Shown here: positions 28,996-41,958 of the stretch, piece by piece
How positions within the stretch are numbered: position 1 is the stretch's first letter
Layout of the letters: each line of letters opens with the position of its first letter
DNA from: a virus
Lineage: Duplodnaviria > Caudoviricetes
Direction: 5' to 3' (one strand)
Length of the DNA: 64,000 nt
IMG/VR virus record: IMGVR_UViG_3300009185_000001
Span: 138,881-202,880 of that record
Notes under the pieces: model-generated
What the model saw: only the letters and a program-made list of their open reading frames with translations
The model's database searches: none
What the model was told of the DNA's origin: nothing
Translations under genes and position numbers: made by a program

Positions 28996-29907
28996 TTATG
29001 AAACAATAAGATAATCTTTTAAATCTATAGAATATGATATAGAAGGATTCAATGGCTTAGTATTTAAATCAGAACTATATATTTTTAAAACTCCATTTAT
29101 ATAGTCTACCCAATTATAGATATATTTATTGGTTCCTGTTGTGCCACACAAATCAAATGATGGTGTAAATGTTATTAATGAGCTTGAGACACTTCCATTT
29201 ACATCTATTTCTATGTGATTATTGTTAGGATCAAAATAATTTTGATAAGAATCATATCCAACAGCTATACTATCAGGAATTCCATCGTATGCCAGTCCAC
29301 CACCATAACCACCCGCAATGTTGGAATAACTTTGTAAAATAAATGTGATGCCATCAGCCCTGCTGCCTCCACCCATTGAAAATACATAGTAACAAGACCA
29401 ATTTAATAAATTTGAATTGCTATCTATAAAATATAAAGGATTTTTATAAAAAATATTTCCGGTTTGGTTTCCTCCTGCTTCTGTAAATCTAATAGAATTT
29501 CCTATTTTTGTTGCATTGTTTAAATAATTAGAGGTATTTAAAACATCTGAATGACTTAAAGAATTTAAGGAAGAATTCCATGTTACATTGTGTAGCCAAT
29601 GCTCATTAGTTGAAGCTCCAGTAGATCCACCAAATCCCATATAAAAAGAATTTTTGCCTATTATTGGAGGATTAATTGTATTAATACATTTAATCGGTGG
29701 AAGCGGAACGTCTAAAGAAGGATTTGGAGGACGATTTCCAACAATACCATCTATGCTTGTAGAATAAGTCGAAGGGCTGCTGGAAACTATATATGGATTT
29801 CCATGACCTAAATCACAACCACAATCTGATGTAGTAGTGACTGGTTCATTTTGAGTTTTTGAAACTGTTATATCATATGATTTTCCAAATCCAATGTAAT
29901 TTACCAT
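28996..29907 (-). CDS. L-type (legume) lectin domain protein
   Basis: YMGFGGSTGA, ADGITF, GGYGGGLAY, AVGYDSYQN...NNHIEID; own TATAAATA promoter at 29917-29924. Confidence 0.7.
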   Translation of the reverse strand: MVNYIGFGKSYDITVSKTQNEPVTTTSDCGCDLGHGNPYIVSSSPSTYSTSIDGIVGNRPPNPSLDVPLPPIKCINTINPPIIGKNSFYMGFGGSTGASTNEHWLHNVTWNSSLNSLSHSDVLNTSNYLNNATKIGNSIRFTEAGGNQTGNIFYKNPLYFIDSNSNLLNWSCYYVFSMGGGSRADGITFILQSYSNIAGGYGGGLAYDGIPDSIAVGYDSYQNYFDPNNNHIEIDVNGSVSSSLITFTPSFDLCGTTGTNKYIYNWVDYINGVLKIYSSDLNTKPLNPSISYSIDLKDYLIVS

Positions 29908-30134
29908 ACTATGTAATATTTATAGTTACATGCTTAGTAAATTTGTATTTATTTTAAAGTTTGACCCTGCCAACATATTTCGTATATTATATTCAGTATA
30001 TTACATTTACTATATTATATTTAAATATTATCTTTCCTATATTATATTGATGCATATTATATTTGGTATTTTATATTTGTATATTATATTTCGTATATTA
30101 TATTTACTATATTATGTTTACTATATTAAAACAG

Positions 30135-30419
30135 CTTTATGTTATCACGATAGTTCTTTATCTATCGTTTCTAACTATTCCTAGTTAGATCAGACTATAT
30201 CTTCACTCTATTTTTTTTATAAAAGAGTGTCAGGCGTTCTTGGGAAGAATTACTGTCCGTTTTGGACTCGCTTCCTAGTCGTTGCACCTTCAAATGCATT
30301 CCTGCATATGCTTGGTTCAGGATTGTCCGTTCTGGAGTTTCCCTGAGTTAACCTGATATGGGCCTATTTTTATGTCAAAGAGCTATTTCCATTAAAGGAA
30401 TTGTTTATACTTATTTATT
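30135..30419 (-). ncRNA. Group I intron/ribozyme core (3' end uncertain)
   Basis: On the minus strand in order: P AACUCAGGGAAA, Q AAUCCUGAACCAAG, R GAAGGUGCAACGACUA, S AAGAUAUAGUCUGA; P3 UCAGG/CCUGA, P8 CACUCU/AGAGUG, P9 CUAACUA/UAGUUAG; P1 with U.G pair at 30420. Confidence 0.85.
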
Positions 30420-30430
30420 ATATACAATTT

Positions 30431-33400
30431 TTAATTGCAACCGTAAATATTATATTTAGTATCACTTGAATACCAACCAGCAGGAGTCAATAAATTACCA
30501 GAATTATCATACGTTCCTCTTTTTCTCCATCCAAAAAATTCAAATGCAAATGTATATATTCCAACAATTAATGAAATTAAATTATTTGTTTGAAGAATTT
30601 CTACTAAATTTAAATTATTTGTGGAATTTCCGGATTGGCTTTGATTTATTATATTTCCAAATTGATCAATTTCTATCGTAACTGTTATGAAACATGCTTT
30701 ATGCCTGCTAAAACCTTCTTCGGGTGTAGATTCTAAAGAATCATAACTATAAATTAACGTTCCATTATTTGTGCAATTATCTGTTGATGGAGGAGTCGGT
30801 GGATCGGTTGCTAATGGTGCGGTTGCCGTTAGCTTTGAATAAGGATCTTTAAACAAACCATAATCATTTCCATATATATCATTCTTCCAATCGGTCATTG
30901 TTCCTTTGTTTACAAGAAGTTCTTTTATTCTATTTTCATAAGAAGATGCTAAAACTTCTCTTCTTAATGTTATTGGATATTTTTCCGCGTAATCCCATGT
31001 AGATGGTAAAGGAAATTTCCAAAAATCAAAATCATCATTTTGTCTACAAAGACCTAAATTATTTCTTTTAATTATTTCGTATTTAGATTGATAAGGAGTA
31101 AATTTTTGATTGTTTAATGTATCTGTTATTCTACCAGCAGCATCCGAAGAACTATAAGATTCCATCATCCAGCGATTATCAATGTCAGTAATCATGGAAG
31201 GAGAGTATTGATCTTTTTTTGTCAACCCTCTCTGTCTTCCGCTAAATTTATTTGTATTTAGAAACAATCTTTCTGCACTTATACTGTCTATAAATGTAAG
31301 AGTATCCTTACTAACTTCCATGGAATATCCTCTTCCTCTCCAATATGAAACTCCTAGATTTTCAGGAAGCATATATTCTCCTAATTGCTTTTCTGATTTA
31401 GCTAAAGATGGTAATGAAATAGTGGCTACTGTAGGATAGAACACATTATTCATGTTTGCATACGGATGAAAAGCTTCTACAGCAACCGCAGTATTAAAAA
31501 CCGCAAAGGTATTTAAACACTTGTTTCTTAGATAAAAATCTTGTGTGTATGTAAAAGCATTACGAGCATAATAGTTATACTTGGTTGGTATAAACGAAGA
31601 ATAGCTTTCTAGTATAATATCACTTGGTTCCTCTGAACTATAGGCAATTAAATCTAAAGTATTACCGTTTCTAAAAATGTCTTGTAAATTTGAAAAATCT
31701 TTATAAAATACTATTTTATTCCATTGATAAGAAGATAGCAAAACATTTAAAGTTAAAGGTTGTGTCCATAATAAATTTGTAATCCCTCTTCTTTGATATG
31801 TCATGAAACTTCCATTGGATAGTGTCATATAAGATATTTCTGGTTGATGAACAGGTAGATATCCATCTATAAATCTTACTTGACCACCGAAGTACATTAA
31901 TTGTTTTTCAAAGTGTTGATCTAAATTTTCTTCTGGTTTTGTATATGATTTAGCCCAAAATGGTTTTCCCCCATATCCTAAACCAACTCCAGTAAGTTGA
32001 AACGAATTTGTAGAATAGTCCCATCCATTCAATTTCATATTTATTGTAAATGATATTGAAGGAGTAGTAAAAGAAGTATTATTTGATCCTTCATAGGAAA
32101 CTTCTGATCTGTGTATGTAAGTCAAATAATCACCAGAACGCAATACCATATCAGAAATATCGTTTGTTGCAATCCATTCTCCAAAAGTATTTCTAATTGC
32201 TTTATACCAAGTCGGTACAATCGATAGTTTAGAATAACTAAACAATGAAGCCAGATATTGAATAAAATTATTTAAATTTCCTTCTCCATCATACAAATAT
32301 TTTTGTAAATTAAAGTACCCATTTCTACTAGCAATTTGTTGCATATTTTCATTGAAATATGTATTAGGACCAATATCTACCGCATATATTTGTGTTCCTT
32401 TGTTTTTTAATTCAAGAGAATATGGAACGGCACTTCCAACATTTATTGTTTCATAACCATCGCTCAATATGATTATATTCTTTATAGCATTACTTCTTGG
32501 TACGTTTCTATTTGTTTTAAATTCTGCCTTTTTCTGAATAATTGCATTTAAAGAATTACAAATTTCAAAAAGACTGTCTGGTTCATTATTATCATATATT
32601 GTAGTATTTAAAATATAATCTGAAAGATACAGTGCATTGTATATGTCAGTCTGAGCAGTGTCTTTTATTGATTGTGATAAAATATCCTGAATAGCAAAAT
32701 TAATTACATTCAAATCATTAGTTAAATAAGTGGCAACTAAAGCATTTTCATTGAAAGAAATTATTGAAATCTGTACATTTACATTTCCATTGATTAAGCT
32801 AGAAGCAAATTCTTTAACTATTTCTATTGTTTTTTGTATGTCTTTGTTTTGTGAATAGCTTTTATCTATGACTATTGATATGTCAAAAACATTATCAGAA
32901 GTATTTGTGGTTATTCCTCTAATGTTTTTATATGGATAATTTACTATTAAATAAGGAGATGCATTATTTTCTTGCTCTGTTGTGCTTGCTACTAAATCAC
33001 TTCTGAAAGATGTTCTATAATATGTATATCTTCTTCCAGTTTTTAAAACCATTCTAGAACCATTTCCTGTTTTCCAAATACCACTACCCCAACCAACTTG
33101 TTTATCTCCAAATATTTCATCTAATTTATAATAAGAAAATTGAGGACTTTGTAAAGGATTTAAACCTCTTGTATCCAACCAAGTATTAAAAGCAAAATCG
33201 GCTCCTAACCCCTGTGGATCAGCAAATAAATAATCTGCCATTCCGTTATAATCAGTTACCACTTCTCCTGAATGTCCTATTGGAGAATATTTTGTAGATT
33301 TACATCTACACTTTGTCCATGCAGGTTTAGCATCAAATGGATCCGGATTTTGATAGTTTTGATTTGTATAATAATTATGAGGAGAACGTTTTACATACGG

Positions 33401-35350
33401 ACAATCCGCAGAGTGTTCCCTATAAAAGAAAACATCATCCGCTATAGTATCCTCATCCATCCAAACAAACGAAACTTTTTGCTTTGGATTTATTTTAGCA
33501 CATAATCCTCCCTGAACGACACCATCTATATGAGAAGCACAGTATATAGCATTGGTATCATATATAGAAATAGGATTCCCTCCATCTCTATTTAATAATT
33601 GAATAGACCCTGCTCCTAGCCATGCGGCTTCAATCGGATCTTCTGTTTTTGTATTTAATTTATATATTAAATCCGCATTATTAAAAGAATTTCCTGCAAC
33701 AGCACCCGTCATTATTTTCGTAGCATCTACTTCAGAAAGATTAATCGGTAAGCAAGTATCATCTAAAACAGTAATTGGAAGATTTTCATTTAAGGCATCA
33801 TATTTTAAAATAGGCCATGCAATATCATTGGTTCCCTCTGATATAGGAAGGTCTGTCTTTTCAAATTTATATAAATATGCTTGTTCTGTTTCACCAGAAA
33901 GAGCATCGCTATATGTAGGATTTATTCCAGATCCAAAAGATCTTTTTGTCAACGTATCGGCTTCATCTGAAAATTTTTCTGAAAATGCATTGCTATAAAC
34001 TAAATTCGAATCATTTATGTATATAGGAGAGGCAGCAGAGTTTGGAAGAGTATTTGTATAATATTGAGTTAGAATTTCTTTCTTTTGCTCATCCAATAGC
34101 TTTAAGTATAAAAAATAATCATCATCGTTTAAACTATATCCATCCCAAAGACTTCCTTTTGATGTCAATTTAAATCCAGGATACGGATATATAAATTCTC
34201 TCGATGTTTGTGCATTAATCGTAAACTGCATTTTATCTTCTGCTTTTATTATATTCGGACCTTTAAGCCATGCACCCTCAAGATTTCCTGATTTGTCTGT
34301 AAAAAATAAATCAGAATTAGTATAATCATCACCACCCGCTGCACCAGATTTTACAAACGAGGAATCATTAATAAGAATTGGATTGTATACATTATTAAAA
34401 ACCGTTTCATCAACAATTCTGTCACCAGAAGGCCAGTAGAACCAATTATTTCCTTGCTCTAAATCTATATTCATAGTGAAATCTGGTTGATTTATTTCAC
34501 TTGCCCTAATTGCCGTTAACCCATATACAGTTTCACCTAAATATTGTTGTGTTGCAATAATTTCATTATATATTAAATTGCTTGCATTGGCAGACAATGC
34601 AGCAGTTGAAAGAGTAGGAATTTCTAAAAGATATTGATTAAATAATCTAGACAATGGAGTATCCGCAACTCTTGAAAGATATCTAGTCGAAAGCAATTCC
34701 AACACTTCGTTTTCTTCTAAACCTTGAAATGGTATTTCATTAACAACCTGTTCTAAATCAACATACTGATTTATTGAAATAGAAGGATCAGAGTCATGAT
34801 AATTCTGAGAATCGTGCAATTCTTCTAATTCTACGAAAAAATTTCCACTAACTGATGAAAGATCAGGAAAATAATTTGATAAAGAAGATATAGGAACCTG
34901 TGTAATATAATTCTCGTCTTTAGTAAATCCTTTTAAAATATATTCATACATCAATGCTTCTAGTCCCATGTTAGAACCTGCCAGATTATAACGAAGCTTT
35001 GCATTTTTTACAGACTCTCTTTTATATGATAATACTTTGCAAACTTCCTTTAGCTTTTTAACGAAATATGGAATTGCAAATATTAATTCTTCATCATTTT
35101 TATAATCCAAATCTGCTAGAAATAAATCTTTTTCTTGCGTACCAAAAAGAAAATTTAAATCTTTTAATAATTGTATGTAATTTTCTTTAATAGCATTGCT
35201 ATTATTAGAAGTTAATAAAGTATTACTCCTATACCATTCGCGTAAATATTCTGAATAATATTCCTGTGCGGTATCTGGTTTTAAATTTTTCTGATACTTC
35301 AACCAAGTAGGATAAGTTAAAGGAGATACTGTATTTAATGGTGCTGACAT
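30431..35350 (-). CDS. Giant protein (1639 aa) with von Willebrand A domain
   Basis: ISIVIDKSYS, QISIISFNE, TDIYNAL, IIILSDGYE, IYAVDIG form a VWA/MIDAS pattern. Confidence 0.75.
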   Translation of the reverse strand: MSAPLNTVSPLTYPTWLKYQKNLKPDTAQEYYSEYLREWYRSNTLLTSNNSNAIKENYIQLLKDLNFLFGTQEKDLFLADLDYKNDEELIFAIPYFVKKLKEVCKVLSYKRESVKNAKLRYNLAGSNMGLEALMYEYILKGFTKDENYITQVPISSLSNYFPDLSSVSGNFFVELEELHDSQNYHDSDPSISINQYVDLEQVVNEIPFQGLEENEVLELLSTRYLSRVADTPLSRLFNQYLLEIPTLSTAALSANASNLIYNEIIATQQYLGETVYGLTAIRASEINQPDFTMNIDLEQGNNWFYWPSGDRIVDETVFNNVYNPILINDSSFVKSGAAGGDDYTNSDLFFTDKSGNLEGAWLKGPNIIKAEDKMQFTINAQTSREFIYPYPGFKLTSKGSLWDGYSLNDDDYFLYLKLLDEQKKEILTQYYTNTLPNSAASPIYINDSNLVYSNAFSEKFSDEADTLTKRSFGSGINPTYSDALSGETEQAYLYKFEKTDLPISEGTNDIAWPILKYDALNENLPITVLDDTCLPINLSEVDATKIMTGAVAGNSFNNADLIYKLNTKTEDPIEAAWLGAGSIQLLNRDGGNPISIYDTNAIYCASHIDGVVQGGLCAKINPKQKVSFVWMDEDTIADDVFFYREHSADCPYVKRSPHNYYTNQNYQNPDPFDAKPAWTKCRCKSTKYSPIGHSGEVVTDYNGMADYLFADPQGLGADFAFNTWLDTRGLNPLQSPQFSYYKLDEIFGDKQVGWGSGIWKTGNGSRMVLKTGRRYTYYRTSFRSDLVASTTEQENNASPYLIVNYPYKNIRGITTNTSDNVFDISIVIDKSYSQNKDIQKTIEIVKEFASSLINGNVNVQISIISFNENALVATYLTNDLNVINFAIQDILSQSIKDTAQTDIYNALYLSDYILNTTIYDNNEPDSLFEICNSLNAIIQKKAEFKTNRNVPRSNAIKNIIILSDGYETINVGSAVPYSLELKNKGTQIYAVDIGPNTYFNENMQQIASRNGYFNLQKYLYDGEGNLNNFIQYLASLFSYSKLSIVPTWYKAIRNTFGEWIATNDISDMVLRSGDYLTYIHRSEVSYEGSNNTSFTTPSISFTINMKLNGWDYSTNSFQLTGVGLGYGGKPFWAKSYTKPEENLDQHFEKQLMYFGGQVRFIDGYLPVHQPEISYMTLSNGSFMTYQRRGITNLLWTQPLTLNVLLSSYQWNKIVFYKDFSNLQDIFRNGNTLDLIAYSSEEPSDIILESYSSFIPTKYNYYARNAFTYTQDFYLRNKCLNTFAVFNTAVAVEAFHPYANMNNVFYPTVATISLPSLAKSEKQLGEYMLPENLGVSYWRGRGYSMEVSKDTLTFIDSISAERLFLNTNKFSGRQRGLTKKDQYSPSMITDIDNRWMMESYSSSDAAGRITDTLNNQKFTPYQSKYEIIKRNNLGLCRQNDDFDFWKFPLPSTWDYAEKYPITLRREVLASSYENRIKELLVNKGTMTDWKNDIYGNDYGLFKDPYSKLTATAPLATDPPTPPSTDNCTNNGTLIYSYDSLESTPEEGFSRHKACFITVTIEIDQFGNIINQSQSGNSTNNLNLVEILQTNNLISLIVGIYTFAFEFFGWRKRGTYDNSGNLLTPAGWYSSDTKYNIYGCN

Positions 35351-41513: not shown

Positions 41514-41856
41514 GGTCGAGTGGTGGAATGGCAGACACAACGGACTTAGAGAAATTTGAGCTTTGATTGGGAAACCTTTCAAATGTAACTTGTCAAATTC
41601 GGTGAAGGGTTTAAACTCCTAATACCGAGCCAAGCATCGAAAGATGAAGGTGTAGAGACTTGACGGCAAGAACCTAAAGCGAAAGCAATGGTTAAGGTAA
41701 AGTCCAGACTACAAACAGATTGAGAAAAGTAAATCCCGAAAGGATTGAACAGAGCGGTAAATACGCTGACTGACGAATCTGGTAACGAAAGTTATAGTAG
41801 TAAGAAAATCCGTTGCCAGTAATGGCGTGAGGATTCGAGTTCCTCCTCGACTACCA
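41514..41856 (+). tRNA. tRNA-Leu(UAA) split by a group I intron
   Basis: Exons 41514-41547 (…ACGGACTT) and 41805-41856 (AAAATCCGT…CTCGACTACCA) join to give a type II cloverleaf with loop CUUAAAA. Confidence 0.92.
41548..41804 (+). ncRNA. Group I intron (trnL-UAA / IC3-type position), 257 nt, no ORF
   Basis: P AAATTCGGTGAA, Q AATACCGAGCCAAG, R GGTGTAGAGACT, S AAGGTAAAGTCC; follows U34; ends in G; ACTAC/GTAGT P9.0. Confidence 0.92.
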
Positions 41857-41864
41857 ATTTAAAA

Positions 41865-41958
41865 GCAAGGTTAGTGTAACTGGAAGCACCGACAGACTTA
41901 TAATCTGTGTATCCTAGATTTGGATCGAGCGTGGGTTCAATTCCCACACCTTGCACCA
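41865..41958 (+). tRNA. tRNA-Ile(UAU)-like with long variable arm
   Basis: GCAAGGT/ACCTTGC, ACAGA-CTTATAA-TCTGT, 22-nt extra arm (ATCC/GGAT), GTGGG-TTCAATT-CCCAC, ACCA. Confidence 0.75.

Follow-up and report, generated by a model that had tools for sequence, protein, structure and literature searches.

The window analyzed here, a stretch of 64,000 nucleotides, comprises positions 138881-202880 of a 202,880-bp virus record that has direct terminal repeats and a G+C content of ~32%. Its minus strand holds a block of virion genes encoding, in order, a 121-aa ORF, a 1639-aa protein with a VWA domain, a 303-aa legume-lectin protein, a 1895-aa protein, a 1060-aa protein, the portal, and a tail-fibre-like protein, and a ribozyme lies between the VWA and lectin genes. 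The features surrounding this ribozyme are as follows.

30431..35350, minus strand: gene of the 1639-aa structural protein, with a VWA domain at residues 823-914 (Pfam PF00092, 1.3e-11)
30443..30811, minus strand: C-terminal domain of the VWA protein, residues ~1514-1636 (42% identity, E 1e-29, to the end of the L145 protein)
30395..30430, minus strand: A/T-rich stretch, probably a decayed ORF tail, of 12 in-frame codons from TAA 30433-30431 to UAA 30394-30392
29959..30821, minus strand: 863-nt cassette absent from the closest relative, L003/L023, the flanks being 95% identical
29964..30134, minus strand: 171-nt spacer between the terminal G of the ribozyme and the guide target, the piece predicted to be circularized
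29975-30128, minus strand: A/U-rich tandem array of 11 copies of a 14-nt unit, detected by TRF and unique in the genome
29917..29924, minus strand: TATAAATA, resembling a T4 late promoter, 9 nt before the lectin ATG
28996..29907, minus strand: gene of the 303-aa legume-lectin-domain protein (Pfam PF00139, 2.2e-21), free-standing

No terminator-like site was found between the VWA and lectin genes. The sequence TATAAATA is enriched ten-fold near gene starts, with 13 of its 45 genomic sites at most 60 nt upstream of ORF starts versus 3% expected. It stands 6-9 nt before many ATG codons (e.g., at window positions 29924, 44480, 45677, 46954, and 47558), a placement that implies late transcripts almost without a leader. 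The contigs of four sequencing runs contained no joint across the element. Those from the one metatranscriptome holding this phage were of low depth and limited to 29399-29886 and 30438-30588, in the flanking genes, and an apparent "skip" in one DNA run proved to be the intron of another organism.

The cassette lies at a variable site. Blastn homology to L003 ends at 30822 and restarts at 29958, and between these points L003 has 2250 nt of other sequence, consisting of a different C-terminal module and two extra genes, followed by the same free-standing lectin gene. The C terminus of the VWA protein (window 30822-30858 and the equivalent positions in L003, L005, and L008) is a module-swapping hot spot with four variants: the window protein ends in the domain listed above, the L003 protein in a Pro/Thr-repeat linker and another domain ahead of its two extra genes, the L005 protein ends abruptly and its gene overlaps the lectin gene, and in L008 the VWA and lectin parts are directly fused in a protein of 1747 aa.

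Identity of the ribozyme and its relation to the flanking genes

Rfam family RF00028 (Intron_gpI) matches the minus strand at 30418..30171 with 84.4 bits (cut-off 50; E 6e-22) over the full model, positions 1-253, a score comparable to the 81-91 bits of relatives within real genes. This 84-bit match was missed when the whole 64-kb window was scanned at the Rfam gathering threshold and was recovered by a search of a short stretch, the filters being lossy with A/T-rich flanks. Since all the helices (P3, P4, P5, P6/P6a, P7, P7.1/7.2, P8, P9, and P9.1) can be read from the sequence and the fold is far more stable than those of shuffled sequences (minimum free energy z-score of -5.05), the complete group I core on the minus strand that the initial annotation described is borne out. 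The parts of the element are as follows.

30394..30135, minus strand: complete ORF-less subgroup-IA group I ribozyme
30365..30394, minus strand: 5' leader (UAA...GCUCUUUGACAU...A)
30360..30364, minus strand: guide G-GCCC, 4 nt before P3
30148..30356, minus strand: ribozyme core from P3 to P9.1, by the Rfam alignment
30356-51 / 30235-30, minus strand: P3
30280-76 / 30197-93, minus strand: P7
30275-30243, minus strand: 37-nt P7.1/P7.2 insert, with GGAAG/CUUCC and GUCC/GGAC and with compensated pairs in relatives
30188-30171, minus strand: P9
30167-30148, minus strand: P9.1
30135..30147, minus strand: 3' tail UGAUAACAUAAAG, closing with the terminal G (omega-G), G30135

The core, checked pair by pair, runs from P3 to P9 and includes the P7 guanosine-binding helix and J8/7, with GACUA/UAGUC and AAGAUAUAGUC the same as in relatives. 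The initial annotation had left the subclass to a covariance-model search; the model gave the match to RF00028, and the extra P7.1/P7.2 helices between P7 and P3' assign the element to subgroup IA. Decay of the core was considered and rejected, for the window copy deviates at 11 of 94 conserved columns versus 15 in the functional psbA intron; one private change, from G to A at the end of P4, gives C.A where the other copies have C-G or U.G. No Rfam family other than Intron_gpI matched the element, no riboswitch family, including the c-di-GMP-II aptamer, matched anywhere in 29800-30600 at E<=10, and transposase genes of the IStron type were not found, there being no ORF of at least 60 aa on the ribozyme strand between 30431 and 29907.

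Both ends of the element can be placed by comparison. The tail AACA-N4/5-G is found in DES1, Vi06, L016, L021, L022, and L072, in which the frame of exon 2 proves the splice site, and all the copies that follow a stop codon have UAACA-N3-5-G. Because the tail in the window (AACAUAAAG, then C) matches that of relatives with a frame-proven 3' splice site, the 3' end is placed by homology at G30135. At the other end, the leader is common to L145, L154, L155, L158, L160, L161, L163, L164, L168, L170, and L141 and has the form UAA-AU-rich-GAUCUUUGA(C/U)A...A in all the copies. It is followed by the guide GGCCC, which is invariant in the nine-copy alignment and precedes (A/U)UA and P3 throughout. 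The position of G-GCCC is that of the proven guides in Vi06, L014, L016, L017, and L021, and the guides of these relatives are G/C-rich 6-7-mers, 4-7 nt before P3, that pair with the adjacent exon. In the window, UAA 30394-30392 aligns with the stop codon of relatives and forms the first three bases of the conserved element; in relatives, the conserved leader begins within ~8-12 nt of the stop. By this alignment, 30430-30395 would be a decayed tail of the VWA ORF.

This tail also holds the P1 of the initial annotation, UAUAU/GUAUA, with a 5' splice site at 30420/30419. We abandon this helix, because 95% of dinucleotide shuffles of the 5' flank give a U.G-containing P1 of at least 5 bp and the stretch is absent from homologous loci. 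No upstream partner for the guide G-GCCC was found nearby, and the homologous loci likewise have none. Upstream, A/U helices aside, a possible partner is offered only by GGUU sites, which fall within conserved Gly codons and would form 4 bp (GGUU/GGCC, closing a 74-nt loop); every upstream P1, including UAUAU/GUAUA, is at chance level. The pairing that is expected of an intron, between the guide and the adjacent 5' exon with a U.G at the splice site, is missing here. P1 helices called automatically across the family were noisy and have been excluded as evidence.

Judged by the sequences on either side, the element interrupts no gene, in agreement with the initial annotation: the VWA ORF ends at the natural end of a domain, an exon 2 is lacking, and the lectin gene is free-standing with the same start in relatives (MVNYIGFG, identical in L003/L007, which have no intron). 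A profile search found 41 representative proteins that carry the C-terminal domain, nearly always 0-3 residues before the protein end, and the VWA ORF is complete because this domain is normally the extreme end of its carriers. The domain had at first appeared to be an orphan module, since a word-based protein search and tblastn against phages were empty, a view overturned by the exhaustive profile search. No exon 2 was found downstream of the 3' end, where all the minus frames are closed within 8 codons; the stops noticed earlier in this stretch are real, and it is there that the 14-nt x 11 array lies. Nor were tRNA halves found on the flanks, as had been noted before.

The possibility that an intron joins the VWA and lectin genes was rejected. 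The lectin frame is closed by TAA 29922-29920, and the 51 nt before the lectin ATG are conserved in L003, which lacks the intron. We also looked at relatives for a continuous VWA-lectin ORF, as the initial annotation had proposed: L008 has one, as a fusion without an intron, and in L003 the lectin gene is free-standing. The same annotation had named restoration of a reading frame by splicing as evidence against its view, and no continuous VWA-lectin frame is restored in the window.

A canonical intron in this phage has obvious exons, as shown by a second group I intron that serves as a control, in contrast to the element after the VWA stop codon.

41548-41804, plus strand: second group I intron, 257 nt (Rfam, 50.5 bits), within tRNA-Leu(UAA) at 41514-41856, between U34 and A35

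ARAGORN missed this tRNA gene with the intron in place and, after in silico splicing, reported a clean 86-nt type II tRNA-Leu(UAA). A tRNA-Ile(UAU) call at window 41865-41958 (plus strand; 94 nt) has an insertion of ~19 nt at the variable region, which is unusual for a tRNA of this kind.

Taken together, the element has the fold of a group I ribozyme, but of the features that define an intron it lacks two: a P1 upstream and a gene that it interrupts.

Conservation after the stop codon in other phages

The ribozyme stands right after the stop codon of genes ending in this C-terminal domain in the window and in 10 further metagenomic phage loci, from freshwater and marine samples. L145 is a distant homolog of the whole locus, with an upstream protein of 26-28% identity over its length, rising to 42% in the C-terminal domain, and with a homolog of the 1895-aa protein downstream; its ribozyme lies 7 nt after the stop and is 82% identical in nucleotides over 210 nt, and the flanking DNA is unalignable. 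The other copies are as follows.

L154: ribozyme directly after the stop, 90.5 bits
L155: ribozyme directly after the stop, 74.2 bits
L158: ribozyme directly after the stop, 85.2 bits
L164 (marine): ribozyme directly after the stop, 89 bits
L161: ribozyme directly after the stop, 47 bits for a copy truncated where the contig ends
L160, L163, L168/169, and L170/171: ribozyme directly after the stop, by sequence

Three carriers of the domain (L162, L165/166, and L167) have no ribozyme. One of these, L167:1939-1975 (plus strand), ends in a tail much like that of the window protein (...GWYSSDTKYDVYRV, then the stop) and has a hairpin with GGGGUUC 19 nt after the stop; it may be an empty site. Several searches for close copies, with exact DNA patterns among viral contigs or with the domain among metagenome contigs, returned none or L145 only.

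The pairing pattern has been maintained through sequence change. Compared with L145, 40 pairs are identical, 8 are compensated, and none has a one-sided change. Among nine copies, RNAalifold shows that 20 of 45 pairs have undergone compensatory change; these lie in P3, P4, P6a, P7.1, P8, and P9. Because of these compensatory changes, and since there is no excess divergence at conserved columns, the RNA fold is under selection at its position after the stop codon, and this selection is purifying. The initial annotation had offered, as one possibility, an intron stranded after the loss of its exons, which is disfavored because the post-stop position is kept in 11 loci and compensatory changes are abundant. 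It had also named a core both catalytically dead and unconserved as a contrary outcome, and as regards conservation this outcome is contradicted by the 20 of 45 compensated pairs in nine copies. These findings show that the copies form a conserved family of post-stop-codon ribozymes that is tied to one C-terminal domain and had gone unnoted. That the element is a subgroup-IA group I ribozyme, that it interrupts no gene, and that it is conserved is, as a whole, something of which we are highly confident.

Wider relatives (L072, L136, and the L133 group) are also found at the 3' ends of ORFs. The L072 intron (5565-5245, minus strand) starts at the stop codon and has no clear exon 2. The L5 loop of its P5 holds a tmRNA-like tRNA domain at L072:5423-5488 (minus strand), with 66 nt comprising an acceptor, a T arm, and CCA (Rfam RF00023, 49.8 bits) and an mRNA-like part of 4 nt. 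In L133 and seven further contigs (L033, L061, L080, L093, L111, L124, and L128), a related group I intron lies two codons before the stop (...CSRLFK, then the stop), and splicing by the U.G rule would do no more than exchange the last residues for a tail of 6 codons.

Reversed order of the splice site and the predicted guide target

A sequence that could pair with the guide lies downstream of the ribozyme rather than upstream (the arrow marks the predicted site of cleavage or splicing).

29960..29969, minus strand: guide target in CAGGGUCAAA, with GGGU↓C at 29967-29963 and a predicted cleavage or 5'-splice-like site after U29964

The 10-mer CAGGGUCAAA is identical in the window and L145, the spacers of which are otherwise unrelated. 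A downstream GGGU[CU] is present in all nine loci that have downstream sequence, with CA next in eight of them, and the first base after the terminal G is C in 9/9 loci and pairs with the first G of the guide. The distance from the terminal G to the GGGU motif varies from 15 to 171 nt, and L155 carries the same AAUAUAAUAUACGA array as the window between the 3' end of its ribozyme and its GGGU. In the order of these elements, the 3' splice site comes before the putative guide target in 9/9 loci; the corresponding P1 is without covariation since both guide and target are invariant. In the 150 nt upstream, GGGU occurs in none of five AT-rich or mixed loci, and L158 has two. Shuffling gave P values for GGGUY of 0.02-0.41 per locus (0.021 in the window), with a product of 1.6e-7 for loci that are not all independent; the signal is weak in spacers of normal G+C content, with P of 0.08-0.41 per locus, and some loci are related. 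GGGUCA was also considered as a promoter element of the next gene and rejected, since the motif is missing before the same lectin gene in the intron-less L003 and is present in L141, where no gene follows on the same strand.

Read from the sequence, the predicted P1 would have U29964 in a wobble pair with G30363, GGG paired with CCC, and C29963 paired with G30364. A 7-bp P10 in the canonical register is predicted as well, with C30134-G30364 followed by UGUUUU (30133-28) paired with AAAAUA (30370-65); beyond the C-G pair, P10 is short in most relatives (1-4 bp). A 9-bp helix of the minimum free energy fold, 30389-30381 / 30136-30128, was discarded: it arises in 4.6% of shuffles, relatives do not keep it, and the P10 register with G30364 takes its place. 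A further pairing, UUUGAC (30379-30374) with GUCAAA (29965-29960), is found in the window copy and L145, is partial in L158 and L164, and is absent from L154, L155, and L141.

These elements suggest a reaction on the late polycistronic RNA. The guide G-GCCC (30364-30360) would pair with GGGU↓C (29967-29963), a site that comes 171 nt after the 3' splice site G30135↓C30134, and free guanosine would attack after U29964, severing the transcript 56 nt before the lectin ATG; in four loci of similar layout, the predicted cleavage site is 51-58 nt from the start codon. The new 3'-OH of GGGU would then attack the 3' splice site and be joined to C30134, so that the 171 nt with the A/U-rich 14-mer array would be freed as a small circle and the VWA mRNA would be left ending in the folded ribozyme. 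Both the circle and the cut are predicted from the fact that the guide specifies joining of GGGU-3'OH to C30134, a base that precedes GGGU on this RNA. The RNA processing or circularization suggested by the initial annotation would fit this conserved reversed order. One point against it is that the strands of P1 would be linked only through the whole ribozyme. Chemically, such a mechanism is plausible by analogy with its precedents, which are the ND5-717 intron, the permuted group II ribozymes, and engineered precursors with the whole group I core at one end (PMC11417360). We regard GTP-dependent cleavage and back-splicing in reversed order as a serious possibility that still falls somewhat short of an even chance. 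More tentatively, the copies may constitute a natural family of back-splicing phage group I ribozymes that, placed behind a gene ending in a fibre-tip-like domain, cut the late operon RNA and free a noncoding circle of 15-171 nt, and the circle of the window phage and L155 could be a decoy for an RNA-binding factor. If so, this circle would string together copies of an A/U-rich 14-mer and resist exonucleases.

Tandem copies bear on the origin of the downstream motif. Pairs of related group I ribozymes in tandem occur at L141:5455-5975 (plus strand) and L168:2128-2572 (plus strand) and in seven other IMG/VR contigs of the L140 group, following a 228-aa or 208-aa ORF, with a 15-nt piece between them that has the conserved ends C...GGGGU. 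In L141 and L168, the motif is directly followed by the second ribozyme, with the guide GCCC, of which GGGU↓CA could be the ordinary 5' splice site. GGGUCA in single-copy loci might descend from such a tandem pair.

This possibility belongs to a different reading, in which the element is a conventional self-splicing intron in 3' untranslated or intercistronic RNA, its P1 being weak or noncanonical and its 5' splice site falling at the stop codon or a little ahead of it. Candidate sites would be GGUU 30442-30439 with GGCC (74-nt loop; the tail ...YGCN-stop would become ...YGSVLI-stop) or an A/U-only helix, excision would only shorten the spacer, and GGGUCA would be a vestige, left from the 5' splice site that served a second tandem copy, now lost. 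There is precedent for a group II intron within a 3' UTR (PMC2504315), and the wider relatives near ORF ends fit this reading: the L133 group has its intron two codons ahead of the stop, L072 has UUGCUU/GGGCAA 9 nt ahead of it, and L136 has GGCU/GGCC. So do L141 and L168, in which the second ribozyme of the tandem has GGGU↓CA upstream of its own guide and a 47-nt P1 loop homologous to the leader. However, no upstream P1 exceeds chance. The GGUU sites fall in conserved Gly-Trp or Gly-Cys codons, and the residues that follow are conserved as protein and so are not spliced out. In relatives, the base before the UAA of the element is A and not U. For an intron in untranslated RNA there is no evident reason to go on splicing, and still this fold has been strongly conserved; a vestige would not be expected to persist, together with its CA, across loci with proteins that are 27% identical. 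On balance, we consider a conventional intron unlikely.

We judge just as unlikely a module for processing and stabilizing the 3' end without ligation. It would only cleave, either hydrolyzing the RNA at G30135↓C30134 or directing guanosine to GGGU↓C, and so detach the VWA mRNA from the RNA downstream and give it a folded, nuclease-resistant 3' end. Hydrolysis at the 3' splice site by group I ribozymes requires no P1, which counts for such a module. Its constant place directly after a stop codon, the lack of a terminator between the VWA and lectin genes, and the late-promoter-like TATAAATA of the lectin gene itself agree with it too. It leaves unexplained, however, the C at position +1, the P10 pairing, and the downstream guide target, and by sequence alone it looks the same as back-splicing.

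A selfish or hitchhiking DNA element without a role as RNA, moving with the domain cassette (by homing through a trans-acting endonuclease, with co-conversion) or serving as a recombination handle for modules of the receptor-binding type, is quite improbable: the strain-specific 863-nt cassette sits at a swapping hot spot (L003, L005, L008, and the window all diverge after residue ~1500), the domain is 42% identical to that of L145 versus 27% for the rest of the protein, as co-conversion would predict, and ORF-less phage introns mobilized in trans are known (PMC3984707), but mobility as DNA selects no RNA helices, yet 20 of 45 pairs are compensated and none is changed on one side only versus L145, and no endonuclease gene was seen beside the element in the window.

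Relation to known group I and group II ribozymes

Group I introns are thought to be kept intact because their host gene needs their excision (PMC3984707). The post-stop family breaks with this logic, since it lies outside the reading frame, where there is nothing to repair, and its fold is conserved nonetheless. Because the fold is conserved outside any frame, in freshwater and marine phages alike, something besides gene repair must select the RNA.

The closest known ribozymes are the subgroup-IA introns of phages, found in the T7-like DNA polymerase gene of Salmonella phage Vi06, the split ORF of Xanthomonas phage DES1, terminase genes of Vibrio phages, and psbA of Synechococcus phage S-CBWM1. 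They have the same core (81-91 bits), with identity as high as 97.7% in the P3-P5 segment, the same P7, P7.1/7.2 insert, and AACA-N4-G tail, and the guide right before P3. These introns, however, interrupt essential ORFs, their P1 is a G/C-rich helix of 6-8 bp with the adjacent 5' exon and a loop of 4-14 nt, and exon 2 continues in frame, whereas the window element starts at a stop codon and has no upstream P1 and no exon 2.

With regard to the order of the splice sites, the coral ND5-717 group I intron back-splices (PMC6545197). Like the reaction that we propose, it combines a natural group I ribozyme with splice sites in reverse order on the precursor and yields a circular RNA containing exon sequence. 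The coral intron, however, is giant and still interrupts ND5, and its permutation arises as the circular genome around it is transcribed, whereas in the window the order is built into a linear phage operon, with a small and whole ribozyme and a noncoding piece between the sites.

Ribozymes acting in untranslated RNA are represented by a c-di-GMP-controlled group I ribozyme in a 5' UTR of Clostridioides difficile (PMC3984707). It resembles the window element as a group I ribozyme of untranslated RNA concerned with the processing of mRNA rather than with repair of a frame. It differs in that it has an upstream riboswitch aptamer and the conventional order and creates a ribosome-binding site, whereas the window element has no aptamer and its predicted site is 56 nt from the next start codon. 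The lariat-capping ribozyme GIR1 of twin-ribozyme introns, which is derived from group I, has no 5' exon and cuts on its own 3' side, thereby forming the 5' end of the downstream mRNA. Its core is rearranged and catalyzes branching, unlike the window element, which has a canonical core and a terminal G.

Finally, bacteria have circularly permuted group II ribozymes, which are natural, have reversed splice sites, contain no ORF, and produce noncoding circles of 15-86 nt (Roth et al. 2021, PMC8637638). The reversed splice sites and short noncoding circle that are predicted here, without an ORF, are of the same kind. The ribozyme class and chemistry are different, and the group II domains are themselves permuted, whereas in the window the domains keep their canonical order and only the 5'-exon strand of P1 is displaced. 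If the proposed reaction takes place, this would be the first phage-encoded ribozyme to make small circular RNAs or to process an operon transcript, and natural designs of this kind would be of practical interest for the production of circular RNA. Should the reversed order work, the family would be to group I what the circularly permuted ribozymes are to group II.
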